From a virus (Duplodnaviria; Heunggongvirae; Uroviricota; Caudoviricetes): 12,532 bases of DNA. The notes beneath the pieces were generated by a model. It had not been told where the DNA came from. It was given only the letters and a program-made list of their open reading frames with translations, and searched no databases. Shown here in pieces: positions 1 to 7,146 of this stretch (position 1 is its first letter; each line of letters opens with the position of its first letter). The DNA is taken from IMG/VR virus record IMGVR_UViG_2548876964_000021, one strand, 5' to 3'. The translations under genes were made by a program, and so were the position numbers.

Positions 1-357
1 GAGCAGGCGTTGTGGGCCCGTCGTCCGTCTGGCACCATCCATCACAGCGATAAAGGCTCTCAGTATGTGTCACTGGCCTATACGGAGCGACTAAAAGAAG
101 CCGGATTACTGGCATCAACAGGGAGTACAGGCGACTCGTATGACAACGCGATGGCTGAGAGCATCAATGGTCTTTACAAAGCGGAGGTAATACACCGTAA
201 GAGCTGGAAAAACCGTGCAGAAGTGGAACTGGCCACACTAACGTGGGTGGACTGGTATAACAATCGACGATTGCTGGGAAGGCTGGGCCATACTCCTCCG
301 GCAGAAGCAGAAAAAGCTTATTATGCTTCCATCGGAAACGATGATCTGGCAGCCTGA
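1..357 (+). CDS. IS3-family transposase OrfB, C-terminal fragment (5' partial; the real start lies outside the window)
   Basis: Translation ...HHSDKGSQYVSLAYTERLKEAGLLASTGSTGDSYDNAMAESINGLYKAEVIHRKSWKNRAEVELATLTWVDWYNNRRLLGRLGHTPPAEAEKAYYA... matches the C-terminal integrase core of IS3-family OrfB proteins, including the conserved Glu of the DDE triad in AESINGLYKAE. The frame is open back to base 1; the TTG at 10 chosen by the ORF track is not a true start. Confidence 0.85.
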   Translation, partial: EQALWARRPSGTIHHSDKGSQYVSLAYTERLKEAGLLASTGSTGDSYDNAMAESINGLYKAEVIHRKSWKNRAEVELATLTWVDWYNNRRLLGRLGHTPPAEAEKAYYASIGNDDLAA

Positions 358-399
358 GTTCACAGATAAAACACTCTCCAGGAAACCCGGGGCGGTTCA
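1..399 (+). mobile_element. Right-hand part of an IS3-family insertion sequence (IS629/IS1203-like), cut by the window edge
   Basis: The transposase frame is open from base 1. After its stop (355-357) the sequence ends ...CCCGGGGCGGTTCA at 399, i.e. a 5'-TG...CA-3' IS3-type terminus (reverse complement TGAACCGCCCCGGG...). The exact end at 399 is from recalled IS629 terminal sequence plus the TG/CA rule and was not verified. Confidence 0.65.
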
Positions 400-657
400 G
401 TTTTCGCCCTGTTCAGCCGACGTCAGACAACGTTGTTCGCCTTCAATCACTGTCGTTGGCTTCTGAACATCGCGGATCCAATATCTGACCGTTGCGCCGC
501 GCAAAAACGGGAATTTAGACCGGTATTTGAACGGCACCCGGATGAAACCCGGTTTAATTTCCACATCACCAAGTTCTAAATGCGTGATGTCCTTGCGTTT
601 TAGCAAATAGCGATCGGCTAAGGCTAACGCAAGAGCGCATACACCCCAGCCAATCAT
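397..657 (-). pseudogene. IS-truncated second gene of the lysis cassette (first 86 codons of a membrane-anchored protein; candidate antiholin, endolysin or spanin)
   Basis: The ATG at 657 overlaps the holin stop in an ATGA arrangement. The N-terminus MIGWGVCALALALADRYLLKRK is a hydrophobic anchor followed by basic residues. The frame runs into the IS terminus, and its stop codon TGA (399-397 on the minus strand) is the TGA of the IS end TGAACC..., so the native 3' part of the gene is missing. Confidence 0.5.
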
Positions 658-983
658 TTCCCACCTCCCTTTTTCACCAAACTTGTAAGAACATTCAGAA
701 TGCTATCGATATTCACTCGTTTCATCCCTGAAATCACCTCATGACCGTTATTGCTGGCTATCGTTACCATTAAGTACGTAATTGATAACTCCCAGCCCTC
801 GTGTTGCCCCAATAGGTACGCCACCGCGCCAGCTGTCACTGCAACAAAGATCTCCGTAACCAATCCCAACAAATTGCCAGACTGGCGACCGTCTCGGACA
901 TCCATCAGGAACGTGCCTATCCCACCAATTACTGAAAGCAGGAGCGCAATAGCAACTGGAGCTAATTCCTGTGTGTCAAGCAC
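654..983 (-). CDS. Holin, lambda S-like (109 aa, 2-3 transmembrane segments, basic C-terminus)
   Basis: GTG start at 983 preceded by AGGAGG with 6-nt spacing; an in-frame TGA upstream excludes a longer ORF. Predicted transmembrane segments: APVAIALLLSVIGGIGTFLM, LLGLVTEIFVAVTAGAVAYLL, LSITYLMVTIASNNG; C-terminal tail ...LVKKGGGK. The pattern resembles lambda S as recalled (GIG...RGR...ITSV...IGS...KRF). Four-base overlap with the downstream gene. Confidence 0.6.
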   Translation of the reverse strand: MLDTQELAPVAIALLLSVIGGIGTFLMDVRDGRQSGNLLGLVTEIFVAVTAGAVAYLLGQHEGWELSITYLMVTIASNNGHEVISGMKRVNIDSILNVLTSLVKKGGGK

Positions 984-989
984 AAGTTC

Positions 990-1009
990 CCTCCTACGTT
1001 GTCAGGAGG
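990..1009 (-). promoter_or_regulatory. 6-bp inverted repeat (CCTCCT-8 nt-AGGAGG) able to fold the holin Shine-Dalgarno into a hairpin
   Basis: Seen directly: 990-995 CCTCCT and 1004-1009 AGGAGG are reverse complements. On the minus-strand mRNA this gives CCUCCU-GACAACGU-AGGAGG-GAACUU-GUG, so the holin SD is the 3' arm of the stem. The same palindrome explains the apparent plus-strand SD at 1004-1009. Confidence 0.3.
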
Positions 1010-1011
1010 TA

Positions 1012-1248
1012 ATGGTATGCAAAGTAACTTCTCAACCGGTCATGCAAAGACAACAAGCGGAAAAAGAAAAGCAAAGCCTGCTACAGCTCGTCAGGGATAA
1101 AACTCAGCTCTGGGACTCACAGTTACGGCTAGGCATTATTTCCGTTCAGGGTAAACAAAAATTAACCGAGTGGATTCTCTATGCGCAGAAAGTCGAATCC
1201 ACGGATACCTCCATCCTTCCAGTAACGTTTCCCGAAAAGCCGGAATGA
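1012..1248 (+). CDS. Hypothetical small protein (79 aa); uncertain whether real or leader sequence of the holin operon
   Basis: ATG at 1012 in frame to TGA 1246-1248, translation MVCKVTSQPVMQRQQAEKEKQSLLQLVRDKTQLWDSQLRLGIISVQGKQKLTEWILYAQKVESTDTSILPVTFPEKPE. AGGAGG lies only 2 nt upstream (poor spacing) and is the complement of the holin-leader palindrome. Several rare codons (AGA, AGG, CTA, CGG). A GC-rich hairpin follows the stop. No homolog recognised. Confidence 0.25.
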   Translation: MVCKVTSQPVMQRQQAEKEKQSLLQLVRDKTQLWDSQLRLGIISVQGKQKLTEWILYAQKVESTDTSILPVTFPEKPE

Positions 1249-1251
1249 GGA

Positions 1252-1271
1252 AAGGCCCGGAATCGGGCCTT
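1252..1271. terminator. GC-rich hairpin (AAGGCCCG-GAAT-CGGGCCTT), possible terminator or RNA structural element
   Basis: Perfect 8-bp stem with a 4-nt loop, 4 nt after the stop of the 1012-1248 ORF and about 270 nt upstream of the holin start on the other strand. Flanking sequence is A/T-rich but there is no clean U-tract on either strand. Confidence 0.3.
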
Positions 1272-1582
1272 AATTAATATCTATAAGCTCAACAAATAAG
1301 AGCTAACAATTTTGTTAATTTCCTCTGGAAATAATGCATTGTGCTTATATATACCTGAAGCTATATTAAAGAGCGTCATGTAAAAAATAAACCAATCAAT
1401 TAAATCTATTTTCAACAAACAAGTCAAAATTTTTAACAGATATGTATAGAAATGGCAAGCCATAAATTAATAATGACATCCTTAATAAGTCTAAAGAAAC
1501 ACTAAATAGATAAAATATAAATTATTACATCCAAAAATATAGAAAGTGTTGGCAATCTTGCAACTCATTATCAATACAATAT

Positions 1583-1612
1583 TGACATCCCTTTAGCGCT
1601 CAGTTTAAAATT
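1583..1612 (+). promoter_or_regulatory. Candidate sigma70-type promoter for the acetyltransferase gene (TTGACA-18 nt-TAAAAT)
   Basis: TTGACA at 1583-1588 and TAAAAT at 1607-1612 within a 470-bp AT-rich upstream region. A second candidate -10 (TATAAT, 1688-1693) lacks a good -35. Sequence match only. Confidence 0.2.
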
Positions 1613-1738
1613 AACATTTGTGTTTACATTGTGCGTTGATTTAGTTTAGCAGGAACGCAGTAACACACTGATGATTATTGTTTTAATTATAATGTCAATA
1701 TATAAACATAGAAACCAAAAAATATAGGCAGTTGCAAT

Positions 1739-2311
1739 ATGTTATGTTACTTAATAGCTATTCACTTTGTCATCTTCGGGAATTCAAAAGCTCTATTGAG
1801 CTACTGGATGGCTGAAATCATCAGGCGTGAAAAAATGGATGTTTGGCGACTATTAAGAGAGAAGAAGCAGCGCAATCGGAATTTCCTTTTCTGGTGGAGA
1901 CTGGCTAATGAAATGTATATTAATGGCAATAAATTACATAAGAAAGCAGCCAGAAAGTTAAACAATAATATAATTAACAGATTTGGTTGCGAAATTGGAT
2001 TGGGCGCAAATATTGGAAAAGGTTTAACAATTCCCCATCATACTGGAATTGTTGTTCATTTTGCTGTTGATGCTGGTGAAAATCTGGTTTTGCGACAGAA
2101 TACTACCATTGGACAGGTAGATGGTGACATGCCTGGTTCAAGAGTAAAAATTGGTAATAACGTTGATATCGGAGCTAATTGTTGCATCATTGGATTATCA
2201 CGTAAAATTGGGGATAATGTAAAAATAGGTGCAATGTCTTTTATAAATAAAGATATACCATCGAACTGCACATATATAACAAAAAAGAGCGGTGTTGTAT
2301 TGTATAAATAG
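1739..2311 (+). CDS. Hexapeptide-repeat (left-handed beta-helix) O-acetyltransferase, serine acetyltransferase/WcaB-like; the start may be internal at 1808 or 1835
   Basis: Translation ...FLFWWRLANEMYINGNKLHKKAARKLNNNIINRFGCEIGLGANIGKGLTIPHHTGIVVHFAVDAGENLVLRQNTTIGQVDGDMPGSRVKIGNNVDIGANCCIIGLSRKIGDNVKIGAMSFINKDIPSNCTY... shows the SAT-type N-terminal helix, [LIV]-G-x-x-x-x hexapeptide repeats and a His in PHHTG at the catalytic position. Alignment with recalled CysE and WcaB sequences suggests the true start is the Met at 1835 (about 158 aa); the longest ORF begins at 1739. No strong SD at any candidate start. AT-rich and on the opposite strand to the phage genes. Confidence 0.85.
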   Translation: MLCYLIAIHFVIFGNSKALLSYWMAEIIRREKMDVWRLLREKKQRNRNFLFWWRLANEMYINGNKLHKKAARKLNNNIINRFGCEIGLGANIGKGLTIPHHTGIVVHFAVDAGENLVLRQNTTIGQVDGDMPGSRVKIGNNVDIGANCCIIGLSRKIGDNVKIGAMSFINKDIPSNCTYITKKSGVVLYK

Positions 2312-2319
2312 AGTACATG

Positions 2320-2347
2320 AAGCCATCAATATTTCTATCGATGGCTT
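2320..2347. terminator. Bidirectional rho-independent terminator candidate between the convergent acetyltransferase and tfa genes
   Basis: Inverted repeat AAGCCATC (2320-2327) / GATGGCTT (2340-2347) with a 12-nt loop. On the plus strand it is followed by TATCCTTTTATT; on the minus strand it lies 8 nt after the tfa stop and is followed by a U-rich stretch. Confidence 0.5.
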
Positions 2348-2354
2348 TATCCTT

Positions 2355-2933
2355 TTATTGCGGGGCGACTGGCCACTCAACATCCGATGCTACTGTTGTA
2401 TCAACACGATTCAACAATACCCGATATGTCTTCCATGCAGTCAGTAACGATGCCTCTTCCTCCGTCGCAATATCCAAATCTACGGCATCCTGAAGTGGCG
2501 CAATATGCTCACTGGCCATCTGCATCAGGCTGTTTTTTGTTTCTTCCGCCTTCCGGATCCGGAACAGTTTTTCTGCTTCTGCATCTTTCACCCAGGCTGT
2601 GCCGTTCCACTTCTGAAACTCCCCTTCCGGGGATAACCAGGTGACATTTTCCGGTAATGGGCCAAGTTCAGAAATAAATAACGCGTCGCCGGAAGCCACG
2701 TCATAGACGGTTTTTCCCCGATGGTCTTCAACGAGATTCCACGATGCCTCATCACTGTTGAAAACGGCCACGAAGCCAGCCGGAATATCTGGCGGGGCAA
2801 TATCGGTACTGTTTGCAGGCAGACCTGTATGAGGTGGAATGTATGCATCACCTTCACCAATAAACTCATTGGTTCCGGTCAGTAGATTATAAATTTTTAT
2901 GGTCCGTGATTGTTCACTCATTCTGAATGTCAT
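2355..2933 (-). CDS. tfa: Tail fibre assembly protein (lambda Tfa-like chaperone)
   Basis: 192 aa, [65 protein letters not shown]...LLNRVDT..., near-identical along its length to lambda Tfa as recalled. Its start overlaps the fibre stop (TAATG). Confidence 0.93.
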
Positions 2934-5782
2934 TATGCAAGCCTCACAATATAGTTAAATGCGATGTTTTTTACGGTGTTTTCTTCGTTACCCGTAGCGT
3001 TAACGGTGATGGTGTGTCCGTGGGGACCAATAATGACAGAATGGGCATGAGCACCAATGCCGATAGTGTGGTTATGGGCACCGATATATACATTGTGAGC
3101 ATGCCCGCCTGCGCTCGACGTGGTACCAGTACCTAACGCAGCGTTAAAACCGGCTGATACACCATTCCCCGCGCCAGTGTGACCAACAGGTATATTGTGT
3201 GAATGATTTCCAGCGCTATTCGTAGTTTTTGTGCCGTAATCAAATGAACTGGTCGTTTTAGTACCGTAATCAAACGACGATGTGGTTTTCGTCCCCAAAT
3301 CCGTACTGGATGCGCTGGCGCTGTGGGTGTGCGATTTAATGCCGTCCTGTTCCTGAGACAATACGGCACGACCACTGCCGGGCTTGCCCTTAATCGTCCA
3401 GCCACGCATATCAGGAATAACGCCTGACGGATAAGCCGCTGCAAGTTTCGGGTATGCAGATTTGTCAAAAGTCTGCCCCTGCATCAGGGCATAACCAGAC
3501 GGAACGGTATCTGATGGCCACGGGATTGGTGCGCCGACTGGGTAGCTTTCTGGTGGAAGATTTTTCGAGGTATAAACTTCTGCCCAGTCTTCCTCAAAAC
3601 CATAACCGTCTCTTGAAGAACGGTAGAACAGACCACCATTTCTGTAATGCGCCTTCATCTGCAAGGTCGGGCAACTTCCGACTCCGGTATAGAAGTTAAC
3701 CAGAATATAGCTGTCGGCAGAGCGAATGACATTGTAAGCGCCTGATTCGGCATTCCAGGGAACGCCCCCATCCGCATCGGCATACGTATCCGTTGCTCTT
3801 CTGGCAAAAGCAGCAACATGCGCAGCGGTTAAAGTGATATCAGTAGAACCATCAAACGAGACGCCATTGATAGTACATGCTGTCTGCAACTTGGTCGCTG
3901 TAGCCGCATTACCAGAGGTGTCCTGATCCCCTTTGGCATTGACGCCGGGAATTGAATCTTTTGACGTATAGACCTGCGCCCATTCAGACCAGTTGGCAGA
4001 ATCAGTATCACGCCGCGAACGGATATGTACGGGCGCATGGTCACCGCTCGTGCCACTCCAGCCAATGAATAACTCACCTTCGCCAGCAGCGGTGGCACCT
4101 TTAAGGTGAAGCACATTGCCATAGGTGGAAGGGTAGCCATTGTTGTATGCCTCATACAGCTGAATCCCGGATGTTCCCTGTGCATTCGCCTCTAGGGCCG
4201 TTACGCGACCGCGAGATACCAGAGTATTGATATTAATGTCAGCCGAACCATCGAATCTGACGCCATTAATGTTTATGGCTGTTTTTAATTTCGTCGCGGT
4301 GTCGGCGTTCCCTGTCAGCGCCCCGGTGATCCCACCGTTGAAAGTCTGGCGTGCACTCCATTTGTTAGCCGTGCTCAACAGGGGGATCTTTTCACCGCTT
4401 GTGCCAAGTTCTCTTAAATCAAGGTATTGGATAACAGCAAGGACGCTTGTTTTGGCCAGAATATCGCGACCGACTGACGTTAAGTCAGTCTGAGAAATAG
4501 TGTCTGTACCGGTAAAGTACGGCAATTTATTTGCGCCTGTAGCAAGACCAGCAAGCGCGGTTAAAGTTGCATCCAGAGGCTGTTTGCCTGCCAGCGCATT
4601 TGTCATTGTTGTCGCAAAGTTCGGGTCATTACCAAGTGCTGCGGCAAGCTCATTCAGGGTATCAAGAGCTTCTGGTGATGAACCAACCAATGCGGATATG
4701 GCAGCTCTTACATAAGCGGTCGTAGCAATCTGCGTGTTATTCGTACCCTGTGCAGCGGTAGGCGCAGTAGGTATTCCCGTTAATGCAGGACTTGCTAAAG
4801 GAGCTTTAAGAGCCAGAGCATTGTTGATAGTTGTGCTGAAATTCGGGTCGTTATTGATCGCAGCAGCTATTTCTTTAAGCGTATCCAGTGTGCCAGGTGC
4901 ACCGTTGATAAGTGCCGTTATAGCTGCCTTAACAAAGGCTGTATTTGCGATCTGCGTGCTATTTGTACCTTGCGCTGCCGTCGGCGCGGTTGGCGTTCCT
5001 GTCAGACTCGGGCTTTCTATTGGCGCTTTGGTATCAGCAAGATCTTTTACAGACTTAACGGCTTTAGGGGTAGCCGCCATTGTTTCGCTGTCGCTGTTAG
5101 TTTCGCTACTGAGCTGAACTAATCCCTTTTGCGTTGTGCTTGCATCCTGCGCCGTATACTTACTGTTCGCCAGATCGTAGGCTTTTTTAACTGCCAGCGA
5201 ACTTGCAGCAACATCACTTCTGCTACTGGTTACAGAGTCTGAAATATCAATGCCGATCGTGCGGTTAATACGCTCGGATGTATCAATCATCTCCTGGGTA
5301 ATGGCTGATACTCCAGCAGGGATATTCACCGTACAAACAAGCAGCTCCCCATCTCCTAACTGATATGAATCGGTATAGGTTCTGGTAACAAATTCAGCCG
5401 CATGAATATGTGACGCGGTATTAACCTGATAGGTATCCTCTCCAAGGAGGTATCTTCCCTTCAGCACAATTGCATATTTCTTGCCTGCACTAAGTGCAAG
5501 AGGAATATCCGTACATTGCTGAATAGTTACCTGGTAGAATTCACCAATATCCACCGACGCCGCGCCTGCGGTTTTATCTCCATCCACTGAGGTGATTAAC
5601 AGGTTCATCCCACCGCCAGGCTTAGGTAAGAAACCGGCATAAAATCCCGGGTCAACAATCCCCCTGAATTTTCGGTTTAGCGCGGCTGACAGATATGGTT
5701 CGTGGTATTGCACATCAGCAACCAGAGCCAACGACTCGGGTGATGGGTAAGTAACCGATGTAACAACTGTAACGTCATTCAT
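2933..5782 (-). CDS. Tail fibre protein (949 aa), mosaic: distinct N-terminal attachment domain, P2 H/T-even-type fibre repeats, lambda Stf-like C-terminal tip
   Basis: Start taken at the ATG at 5782 ([10 protein letters not shown]...), which has AAGGA 8 nt upstream and lies 8 nt after the upstream gene stop. Middle region ...[45 protein letters not shown]...[28 protein letters not shown]... resembles P2 H/T4 gp37 repeats. C-terminus ...[47 protein letters not shown]...[40 protein letters not shown] matches the lambda Stf C-terminus. Confidence 0.9.
3225..3314. repeat. Tandem 30-bp repeat (2 good copies plus 1 degenerate) inside the fibre tip coding region
   Basis: 3225-3254 gtttttgtgccgtaatcaaatgaactggtc; 3255-3284 gttttagtaccgtaatcaaacgacgatgtg; 3285-3314 degenerate. 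Encodes the [10 protein letters not shown] decapeptide repeats on the minus strand. Confidence 0.8.
4580..5020. repeat. Diverged tandem duplication of about 219 bp inside the fibre shaft coding region (approximate bounds)
   Basis: Two roughly 73-aa units, [74 protein letters not shown] and [75 protein letters not shown]; the matching DNA blocks are visible around 4600-4800 and 4820-5020. Confidence 0.75.
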
Positions 5783-5793
5783 CAAGCATATCC

Positions 5794-6228
5794 TTATGCT
5801 GTAGTCGTGTTTATGGCCATAACTGCGGTATATGTTTTGCCCACATACAGCGAGTCTTCCTGGACACAAATAATGGCGATTGGCTTGTTCTCGTTATCCA
5901 GAACAACCAGAGTGTTGAATGGGTAGTTTTTCCCTTCCTGCAACTGGCTTTGATCAAGGTCCATTCGGACAGTAATTATCCCACCTGAGTAGGTTGGCAC
6001 GAGGTTGATGGTACAAAATTGGCTGGTCAGTTCTGCCAGATCGAAAGCCTTTGGCAGTTCTCCAATCTCATAAGTGCCATCTCCTTTCTTAGTAACCAGA
6101 GAACTGGTACCGAAAACGGCCTTGCTGATTAAAAATCGAGAGCCTTTGTTAATGGACGATTCAGCGCGCCGCTGATAGTAATAGTCCAACAACTGACTCT
6201 TATAGAGGTTTGTTGAGACGTCAGACAT
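5794..6228 (-). CDS. Hypothetical tail protein (144 aa) immediately upstream of the tail fibre; possible fibre-associated structural or assembly protein (P1 R-like position)
   Basis: ATG at 6228 with GGGAAAA upstream; ends 8 nt before the fibre start. No motif recognised; assignment is by position only. Confidence 0.6.
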
Positions 6229-6278
6229 GATTTTCCCTAATCACTGTTGTGAAGCCTCATTGTAAGAGAAGTAACTTG

Positions 6279-6303
6279 TCACCCCGCCCTGCGGACGGGG
6301 TGA
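6279..6303. other. Intercistronic GC-rich hairpin (TCACCCCG-9 nt-CGGGGTGA) between the baseplate genes and the fibre module
   Basis: Perfect 8-bp inverted repeat, 3 nt after the stop of the 279-aa gene and about 50 nt before the 144-aa gene start, in an otherwise tightly overlapping operon. No U-tract, so not a classical intrinsic terminator. Confidence 0.4.
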
Positions 6304-6306
6304 TTG

Positions 6307-7146
6307 TCAGGCGTCGCTATCCAGCAACAAATCATCTGCGCGGGTGCGATCAAACGTAGGTGTCGCTTTCACAATAGTGCCACCAGGCGTTGCGGTGATC
6401 GGGGCGCTAATCGACGTAACTCCAGTAAGCGAAGTTGTATCCGAAGTTTCAAACCAGCAGAATGCTTTTTCGGTATCAGAAATCTCGTTCAAAGTGATCA
6501 TGTCGGCCTGTTCATTTACAACAACCGACAAATAGAGCGTAAGCCCATCAAACACTATATGCAGTGGCAGTAGAGGCTTTACGAACTGATTAAACTTTCT
6601 GAGAATTTCTTCTGTAATTGCGGACTGATCTATCGTGCCAGTAATACCCATTGTCCGGGCCAGGTCGTTTATGGGAATACTGATCATCCCTCTGGAAGTC
6701 AGAAACATCTCGCCGAATGTGCCGCCGGTAGTCTCCAATGTGCTTTCTGGTATTAGAACTGTGCCATAGGGATGACGCTCAAGGTCCACCGGTGCATATA
6801 TCGGATCCCATAAAACAGAAATACCGTTAAATTCGCGGTAAATTGTCTGGTTTATAGGACGTTCAGTTCCCTTAAAGTGGATCTCATCAAGCCGCTGTTG
6901 TAACAACATCGGAACGGAAGATGAGTCCGAGGTTCTGATAGTAAAGAACTGGCCAAGTTCATTTGTCCTGGTCTCCAGATCCTCCTTGCTCATGGAGAAA
7001 ATAGACTTCCGGTTGGTAATTCGCTCCAACCATGGGTCAACAAAGGTGTCCATCATTGACTGAACCAAATCAGCCAATGATTTATAGAGCAATGACTTTT
7101 GCTTAGCTGATGTAAGCCGGTTATTAAACCAGGAACGCTGCATCAC
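6307..7146 (-). CDS. Putative baseplate / tail protein (279 aa)
   Basis: Start overlaps the stop of the 477-aa gene (ATGA), placing it in the same coupled operon between a J-like wedge protein and the fibre module. No specific motif recognised. Confidence 0.65.
   Translation of the reverse strand: MMQRSWFNNRLTSAKQKSLLYKSLADLVQSMMDTFVDPWLERITNRKSIFSMSKEDLETRTNELGQFFTIRTSDSSSVPMLLQQRLDEIHFKGTERPINQTIYREFNGISVLWDPIYAPVDLERHPYGTVLIPESTLETTGGTFGEMFLTSRGMISIPINDLARTMGITGTIDQSAITEEILRKFNQFVKPLLPLHIVFDGLTLYLSVVVNEQADMITLNEISDTEKAFCWFETSDTTSLTGVTSISAPITATPGGTIVKATPTFDRTRADDLLLDSDA

Follow-up and report, generated by a model that had tools for sequence, protein, structure and literature searches.

Which tail does the fibre gene of the viral record IMGVR_UViG_2548876964_000021 belong to, where does its receptor-binding end come from, and what does that end say about the receptor? 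The stretch analysed, referred to here as the window, comprises 12,532 nucleotides from a member of the Caudoviricetes. An earlier reading of the letters alone (the sequence-only reading) had taken the fibre gene and its chaperone gene as a mosaic, in which the tip and chaperone of lambda Stf/Tfa were grafted onto a different anchor and shaft. That P1, Mu, P2, lambda and T-even phages trade tail-fibre modules is textbook knowledge, and the coordinates proposed for the pair, 2355-5782, are exact, with tfa at 2355-2933 and the fibre gene at 2933-5782, both on the minus strand. The locus is very probably a P1-like fibre operon in which the cassette for the tip and the chaperone has been swapped and the host-range switch deleted.

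LPs, R, S and tfa make up the late tail-fibre operon, which belongs to a P1-like (Punavirus) plasmid prophage of Shiga-toxin E. coli. Seven large open reading frames (ORFs) on the minus strand occupy 2355-12351, and each of them, from sit to tfa, is intact over its whole length. In megablast searches of phage genomes, the block made up of sit, pmgA, bplA, gene 16, R and the beginning of S is syntenic with P1 at 97% DNA identity, and phage vB_EcoM-Ro157c2YLVW (MH160767; hereafter Ro157c2YLVW) matches 96% of the window at 98.5% DNA identity, while plasmid p08_4347-1 of Escherichia coli O111:H8 is 100% identical to window 1-12493. The P1 late promoter LPs lies upstream of R-S-tfa (6259-6277, minus strand; 98% alignment with the annotated P1 LPs region), and its -22 and -10 (TACAAT) boxes are intact and identical to those of P1, with one change in the spacer. 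The first gene of the fibre operon, R (5794-6228, minus strand; 144 amino acids), is assigned by synteny and 96-100% DNA identity to the P1 tail-fibre structure or assembly protein, and it matches PHROG 2032 (E 7e-85). The mosaic fibre gene S follows (949 amino acids, ATG at 5782), with Pfam matches to Phage_fiber_2, Collar and gp37_C and a stop codon that overlaps the tfa start as TAATG. A scan of the fibre, Tfa and R against NCBIfam returned no family match.

The anchor and most of the shaft are those of P1. Residues 1-653 of S share 96% amino acid identity with P1 gpS (E-value 0), and in a binned identity profile against eight references, which resolved the fibre into blocks of differing origin and located the breakpoints between them, P1 homology spans 3844-5782 with one weaker bin at 87%. 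This part includes Sc, the constant P1 portion of S (4432-5782, minus strand; about residues 1-451), which corresponds to P1 Sc outside the C segment and would form the baseplate anchor and proximal shaft. It also includes the former inverted-repeat arm of the P1 C segment (3844-4411, minus strand; about residues 458-646); indeed, window 3844-4432, the 589-bp arm, matches both P1 arms at 96-97%. The sequence-only reading had described the N-terminal 190 residues and the shaft as unrelated to lambda Stf and both as resembling P2 H/T-even fibre repeats. The first description is right for residues 1-168, which find no match in lambda Stf (orf-401), the lambda N-terminal attachment domain being absent, but not for residues 169-253, 47% identical to orf-401, or for residues 393-452, which align closely with the start of lambda orf-314. 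The second is right in that P2 H is 58% identical across residues 213-458, a resemblance that is the known similarity between P1 and P2, but the far closer match to P1 gpS had been missed. P2 H and Mu S were rejected as the source of the anchor, their matches being only local similarities of 38-58%. The name "prophage tail fiber N-terminal domain", given by the Prokaryotic Genome Annotation Pipeline (PGAP), fits chromosomal lambdoid hits and not the S gene found here. Within Sc, window 4601-4900, which holds Phage_fiber_2 repeats, falls to 87-91% identity to P1 and is 99-100% identical to phage-plasmid JL22 (ON018986), a pattern that hints at another small exchange, or at a reshuffling of repeats, inside the "constant" part.

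P1 homology stops at a precise point. The window equals P1 up to 3844-3859 and phage Turner stf from there on, and the 16-nt microhomology at this place (minus strand), TCGTTTGATGGTTCTA, which encodes S-F-D-G-S, is common to P1 and Turner. A four-way alignment places the divergence of P1 Sv and of JL22 stf at this very nucleotide, and the end of P1 homology coincides with the end of the inverted repeat of the P1 C segment; the SFDGS-coding motif thus looks like a recurrent crossover point. Beyond it lies a lambdoid-Stf-type segment with a gp37_C-like domain (3545-3843, minus strand; about residues 647-745), which is 98% identical in DNA to Turner stf and about 94% to Rac stfR. This segment also shares 48% amino acid identity with Mu S', matches PDB 8JU3 and scores just under the cut-off for PF12604.

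The segment leads into the receptor-binding tip (residues 746-949; 2933-3544, minus strand), which consists of a collar, a His-x-His needle and a small distal subdomain. Residues 745-949 align to the solved T4 gp37 tip (PDB 2XGF, E 2e-77), and PF07484 Collar is recognised within the tip (E 6e-12). The six His-x-His motifs, compared with seven in T4 gp37 and Turner and eight in lambda, are putative iron sites by analogy with the T4 gp37/lambda Stf tip family. A dedicated chaperone gene stands directly downstream, tfa overlapping the S stop; its product of 192 amino acids matches PF02413 (Caudo_TAP) with an E-value of 8e-43 and 146 bits against a cut-off of 22. Chance is excluded by the E-values (0 for P1 S, 3e-98 for lambda orf-314, 2e-128 for lambda Tfa), and the fibre gene is, as had been proposed, a recombinational mosaic. 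Its tip and chaperone are members of the lambda Stf/Tfa (T4 gp37) family of modules and stand on a non-lambdoid tail, namely the contractile tail of P1.

Outside P1-like plasmids, the imported tip, tfa and acetyltransferase have close counterparts in P2-like prophages. Window 1747-3544, which covers the tip, tfa and an adjoining acetyltransferase gene, forms one ungapped block with 93.7% DNA identity to a P2-like prophage that the matching O111:H8 strain carries in its chromosome, and across window 1747/1835-3544 the P2-like prophages of E. coli O104:H4, O111 and O157 reach 94-97.5% ungapped DNA identity, the upper value belonging to O104:H4. These prophages resemble the window in the tip (96-98% in protein), in Tfa (95%) and in a convergent acetyltransferase gene; they differ in that their N-terminal anchor and shaft are of P2 H type, on a P2-type tail. 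The matches extend over window 1835-3544 for P2-like prophages and, the distal tip excepted, over 2369-3857 for lambdoid ones.

The tip swap is accompanied by a larger event that the sequence-only reading, which saw the exchange of modules, had missed: the invertible C segment of P1 has been lost, and cin with it. The genes and sites of P1 run lydA, lydC, cin, cixL, Sv', U', U, Sv, cixR, Sc. In the window, the sequence just after the LPdar region runs straight into the last 232 bases of the U' region, and these are followed by the U'/U hairpin and then by foreign AT-rich DNA, and the deletion junction at 1043-1044 marks the removal of lydC, cin, cixL, Sv' and the 5' part of U' (P1 L002 2145-5014). 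The 3' remnant of U' (ORF 1012-1248) with the U'/U intergenic hairpin, which is conserved, occupies 1044-1275 (plus strand) and is 86% identical to P1 L002 5015-5246. Read on its own, the U' stump (1012-1248, plus strand) has an in-frame ATG, encodes 78 amino acids, covers the C-terminal half of Caudo_TAP and carries the RefSeq name of a tail fibre assembly protein. The other vestige is an orphan cixR (4412-4431) inside the S reading frame, identical to P1 cixR at 19 of 20 bases. An invertible C segment made up of cin, two cix sites and the alternative Sv/U and Sv'/U' cassettes is therefore lacking, with only cixR and the U' stump left, and since cin, cixL, Sv' and most of U' are deleted, the fibre is fixed in one form. 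Compared with P1, the gene order sit-pmgA-bplA-16-R-S, LPs, S 1-653 and cixR are retained, whereas the unique Sv part and U are replaced by the foreign tip, tfa and acetyltransferase, and the switch is gone. P1 variants without a complete C segment have been reported, the invertible segment being a trait of prototype P1 and not of all Punavirus (PMC6906374).

Relatives place this arrangement among known ones. The fibre S protein of Ro157c2YLVW, deposited as a phage genome with a Shiga-toxin-producing E. coli O157 host, is 100% identical, its Tfa is 99% identical and it has the same deletion junction. Similarity that is uniform along the whole fibre to one known gene, which had been held to speak against a mosaic, does exist in this one sense; the mosaic is thus old and already sequenced, not new. 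Ro157c2YLVW and about 48 P1-like E. coli plasmids, many from Shiga-toxin strains, differ from the window in that the window copy has IS1203 in lydB, and their acetyltransferase region is 91-98% identical. A survey of 5,426 complete E. coli genomes found the deletion junction in 49 of them and the P1/Stf junction in 48; as the neighbouring P1 lydA sequence is present in about 470 plasmid records, roughly one P1-like plasmid in ten has the locked form. Many of the carriers among those listed are O111, O26 and O157 strains, and pO111-type plasmids are included. JL22 shares with the window a Tfa 98% identical in amino acids, the same acetyltransferase, a distal tip 99% identical over the last 119 residues and the same S crossover. 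It differs in its fibre of 1006 amino acids, in another middle segment (69% or no DNA match at window 3551-3850) and in an invertible segment that is kept, cin, cixL, Sv' and U' being present together with the same tfa and acetyltransferase; JL22 represents the invertible intermediate. The paper on JL22 noted the replacement of U and of part of S (PMC9603915). The mosaic is a known variant of the P1 fibre locus, already deposited and described.

A P1-like operon with a swapped cassette and a deleted switch suggests the following course of events. At the SFDGS-coding motif, P1 Sv and its chaperone U would have been replaced by a cassette from other temperate phages, consisting of the lambdoid-Stf-type domain, the T4-gp37/lambda-Stf-type tip, the lambda-type Tfa and a hexapeptide acetyltransferase. 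In a second event, lydC, cin, cixL, Sv' and most of U' would have been deleted, leaving a single fibre form. Late in infection, LPs would drive R, S and tfa, and Tfa would fold the trimeric His-x-His needle in the way that lambda Tfa serves lambda Stf, and gp38 or Tfa serves T4 gp37. The N-terminal two-thirds of S, derived from P1 gpS, would attach the trimer to the P1 baseplate and form the shaft, and the small distal subdomain would then bind an outer-membrane receptor.

Several points weigh against this account. No single sequence in the collections searched joins all the imported segments outside P1-like plasmids, which implies more than one exchange, the number and order of the events being deduced. 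The part played by S and Tfa in assembly and adsorption is likewise drawn by analogy with characterised fibres. The record of Ro157c2YLVW is linear and 80.7 kb long, and a literature search found no paper on the biology of this phage. Lastly, with IS1203 in lydB and, in the matching plasmid, upstream of sit, the window element may no longer make virions.

This last point is the basis of the best-surviving alternative, in which the operon is the decaying relic of a defective prophage plasmid and its fibre has fallen out of use. The right end of IS1203 (window 1-399) sits in lydB and truncates the gene at 399/400, and p08_4347-1, which matches the window at 100%, carries a further IS1203 in direct orientation immediately upstream of sit (IS1203 copies at 5144-6357 and 18545-19758 of L007). 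The 12-kb tail block is thus flanked by IS1203 on both sides, in the manner of a composite transposon, and the prophage may be defective. Damage to the tail region is, moreover, well documented in P1-like plasmids (PMC6906374). Decay of the operon itself is nevertheless rather unlikely: the seven ORFs from sit to tfa are intact, LPs is intact, the S protein is identical to that of a deposited phage genome, and LydB, the protein disrupted by IS1203, is annotated in P1 as an antagonist of LydA, and as such is a lysis regulator and not a part of the virion.

A second alternative, favoured by the sequence-only reading, holds that the tip and the chaperone came straight from lambda and that the fibre has the OmpC specificity of lambda Stf. 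The resemblance to lambda is real and extends over the collar, the His-x-His needle, the C-terminal end and Tfa. In particular, residues 746-850 are 90% identical to lambda Stf (94/105), the last 64 residues are 78% identical (50/64), and the C-terminal 15 residues are identical, as is the conserved C-terminal 11-residue motif of the family. The last 150 or so residues of the fibre and the whole chaperone had been called nearly identical to their lambda counterparts. Similarity does cover the last 204 fibre residues, but at 63-64% overall; likewise Tfa, 88% identical across 191 amino acids (168/191), is similar to lambda Tfa rather than nearly identical. Other phages are closer. The tip is 98% identical to the fibre H of a P2-like prophage of O104:H4, 96% to that of O111 and 72% to Turner, compared with 64% for T4 gp37 and 63% for lambda Stf, and Tfa is 92% identical to that of Turner. 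Most 150-base bins of the imported segment have higher DNA identity to Turner and to P2-like prophages than to lambda; with up to 97.5% DNA identity to O104:H4 P2-like prophages from tip to acetyltransferase and 98% identity to Turner in the segment upstream, lambda does not stand as the donor, and its direct origin was rejected on this lower identity. Taken together with the distal tip described below, these values make a lambda source with lambda specificity very improbable.

Within the tip, the distal subdomain is the part that departs from lambda, whose Stf also carries the N-terminal domain missing here. Identity falls away at about residues 851-885, where some 20 residues (866-885) face 62 lambda residues with which they do not align, across 44 gap positions, and the subdomain as a whole is 42 residues shorter than that of lambda and does not align with it. 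In T4 gp37, this small distal subdomain (residues 932-959) carries the contacts with OmpC and lipopolysaccharide (LPS) (PMC6957217), and members of the tip family use either OmpC or LPS core (PMC9659904), so that different receptors go with tips of one family. The part that carries the contacts in T4 gp37 is thus the very part that differs from lambda, and lambda-type specificity is not predicted, the receptor-contacting subdomain not being alignable with that of lambda. With T4 gp37, the whole tip aligns, the distal subdomain is of similar size and H-S-H-x-I is conserved, followed by a glycine-rich loop. T4 gp37 differs in overall identity, in the number of His-x-His motifs and in its chaperone, which is gp38 and not of Tfa type. 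Most other positions of the distal stretch also differ, and an HMMER alignment shows changes here at N937, S947 and Y949 at least, among the ten tip residues reported to be critical in T4. When the phage collection was searched with the last 119 residues, the best match apart from Ro157c2YLVW and JL22 was at 68% (Peduovirus P24A7b); with no characterised close phage tip, the receptor is not transferable by homology. An OmpC-like receptor or LPS core is possible, and the choice is not predictable from lambda.

That the fibre could still be switched, with cixR pairing with a cix-like site elsewhere under a chromosomal invertase of Pin/Cin type acting in trans, is extremely improbable: cixR is kept with a single mismatch and Pin-family invertases are common in E. 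coli prophages, but a scan of the 12.5-kb window that allowed up to 5 mismatches found no second cix-like site, the U' stump is all that is left of an alternative Sv'/tfa' cassette, and tblastn found Cin homologues neither in the window nor anywhere in the genome of Ro157c2YLVW (JL22, as positive control, 99.5%). The mismatch itself, a C-to-T change, adjoins the central AA crossover dinucleotide, as would be expected of a site no longer under selection for inversion. As for the lambdoid phages with the closest Stf segment, Turner and 2H10, a DNA invertase gene lies just downstream of tfa (1802-2392 of both L009 and L010), which indicates that fibre-switching modules also occur next to lambdoid stf-tfa.

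The end of the window distal to lydB has a peculiarity of its own. The last 42 bases (12491-12532) match neither P1 nor IS1203, though p08_4347-1 carries IS1203 at that place. Window 12420-12532, used as a query, hit almost all E. coli chromosomes, once each (5,432 chromosomal places), and the matching part of the query is presumed to be the last bases. If so, the window comes either from a chimeric contig or from a source in which the tail block adjoins core chromosomal sequence.

The third gene of the imported cassette lies convergent on tfa. It occupies 1739-2311 (plus strand), is a moron of low guanine-plus-cytosine (GC) content and gives Hexapep matches, as befits a left-handed beta-helix (hexapeptide) acetyltransferase; it matches PHROG 2154, and its counterpart at the equivalent position of a P2-like prophage is 88% identical in amino acids. 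The annotation name, serine O-acetyltransferase (CysE), was not upheld, as the scores stay below every curated NCBIfam cut-off (EpsC 77.5 against 150, CysE 65.6 against 210.65, WcaB 56.5 against 194.65), and the product is a predicted hexapeptide acyltransferase. It is preceded by an AT-rich spacer (1276-1738; GC 28-31%), with full-length matches in P1-like plasmids only and with a sigma-70-like site at 1582-1611 (plus strand) that agrees with 11 of 12 consensus positions, a consensus match only. The layout of acetyltransferase, tfa and gp37-type tip recurs in the P2-like prophages of O104:H4, O111 and O157, and in Citrobacter phage phiNP in diverged form (acetyltransferase 43% in amino acids, tip 67%). 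A search of the literature on acetyltransferases adjoining tfa found nothing on function. The gene may be a surface-modifying moron linked to the tip. A stronger version, on which the imported unit is a three-gene host-range cassette whose acetyltransferase would modify, in lysogens, the surface structure bound by the same tip (LPS core, O-antigen or another polysaccharide), is an improbable proposal. If true, such a receptor-modifying cassette would bar superinfection and keep progeny from adsorbing to lysogens, and it would explain why the tip, Tfa and acetyltransferase travel together.

In practical terms, with a P1 anchor, particles that carry this fibre would be P1-type transducing phages in O111, O26 and O157 Shiga-toxin strains, with a host range fixed by the deletion of the Cin switch, and the SFDGS-coding crossover, used by P1 Sv/Sv', by JL22 and by the window fibre, would be a natural splice point for the engineering of P1 fibres.

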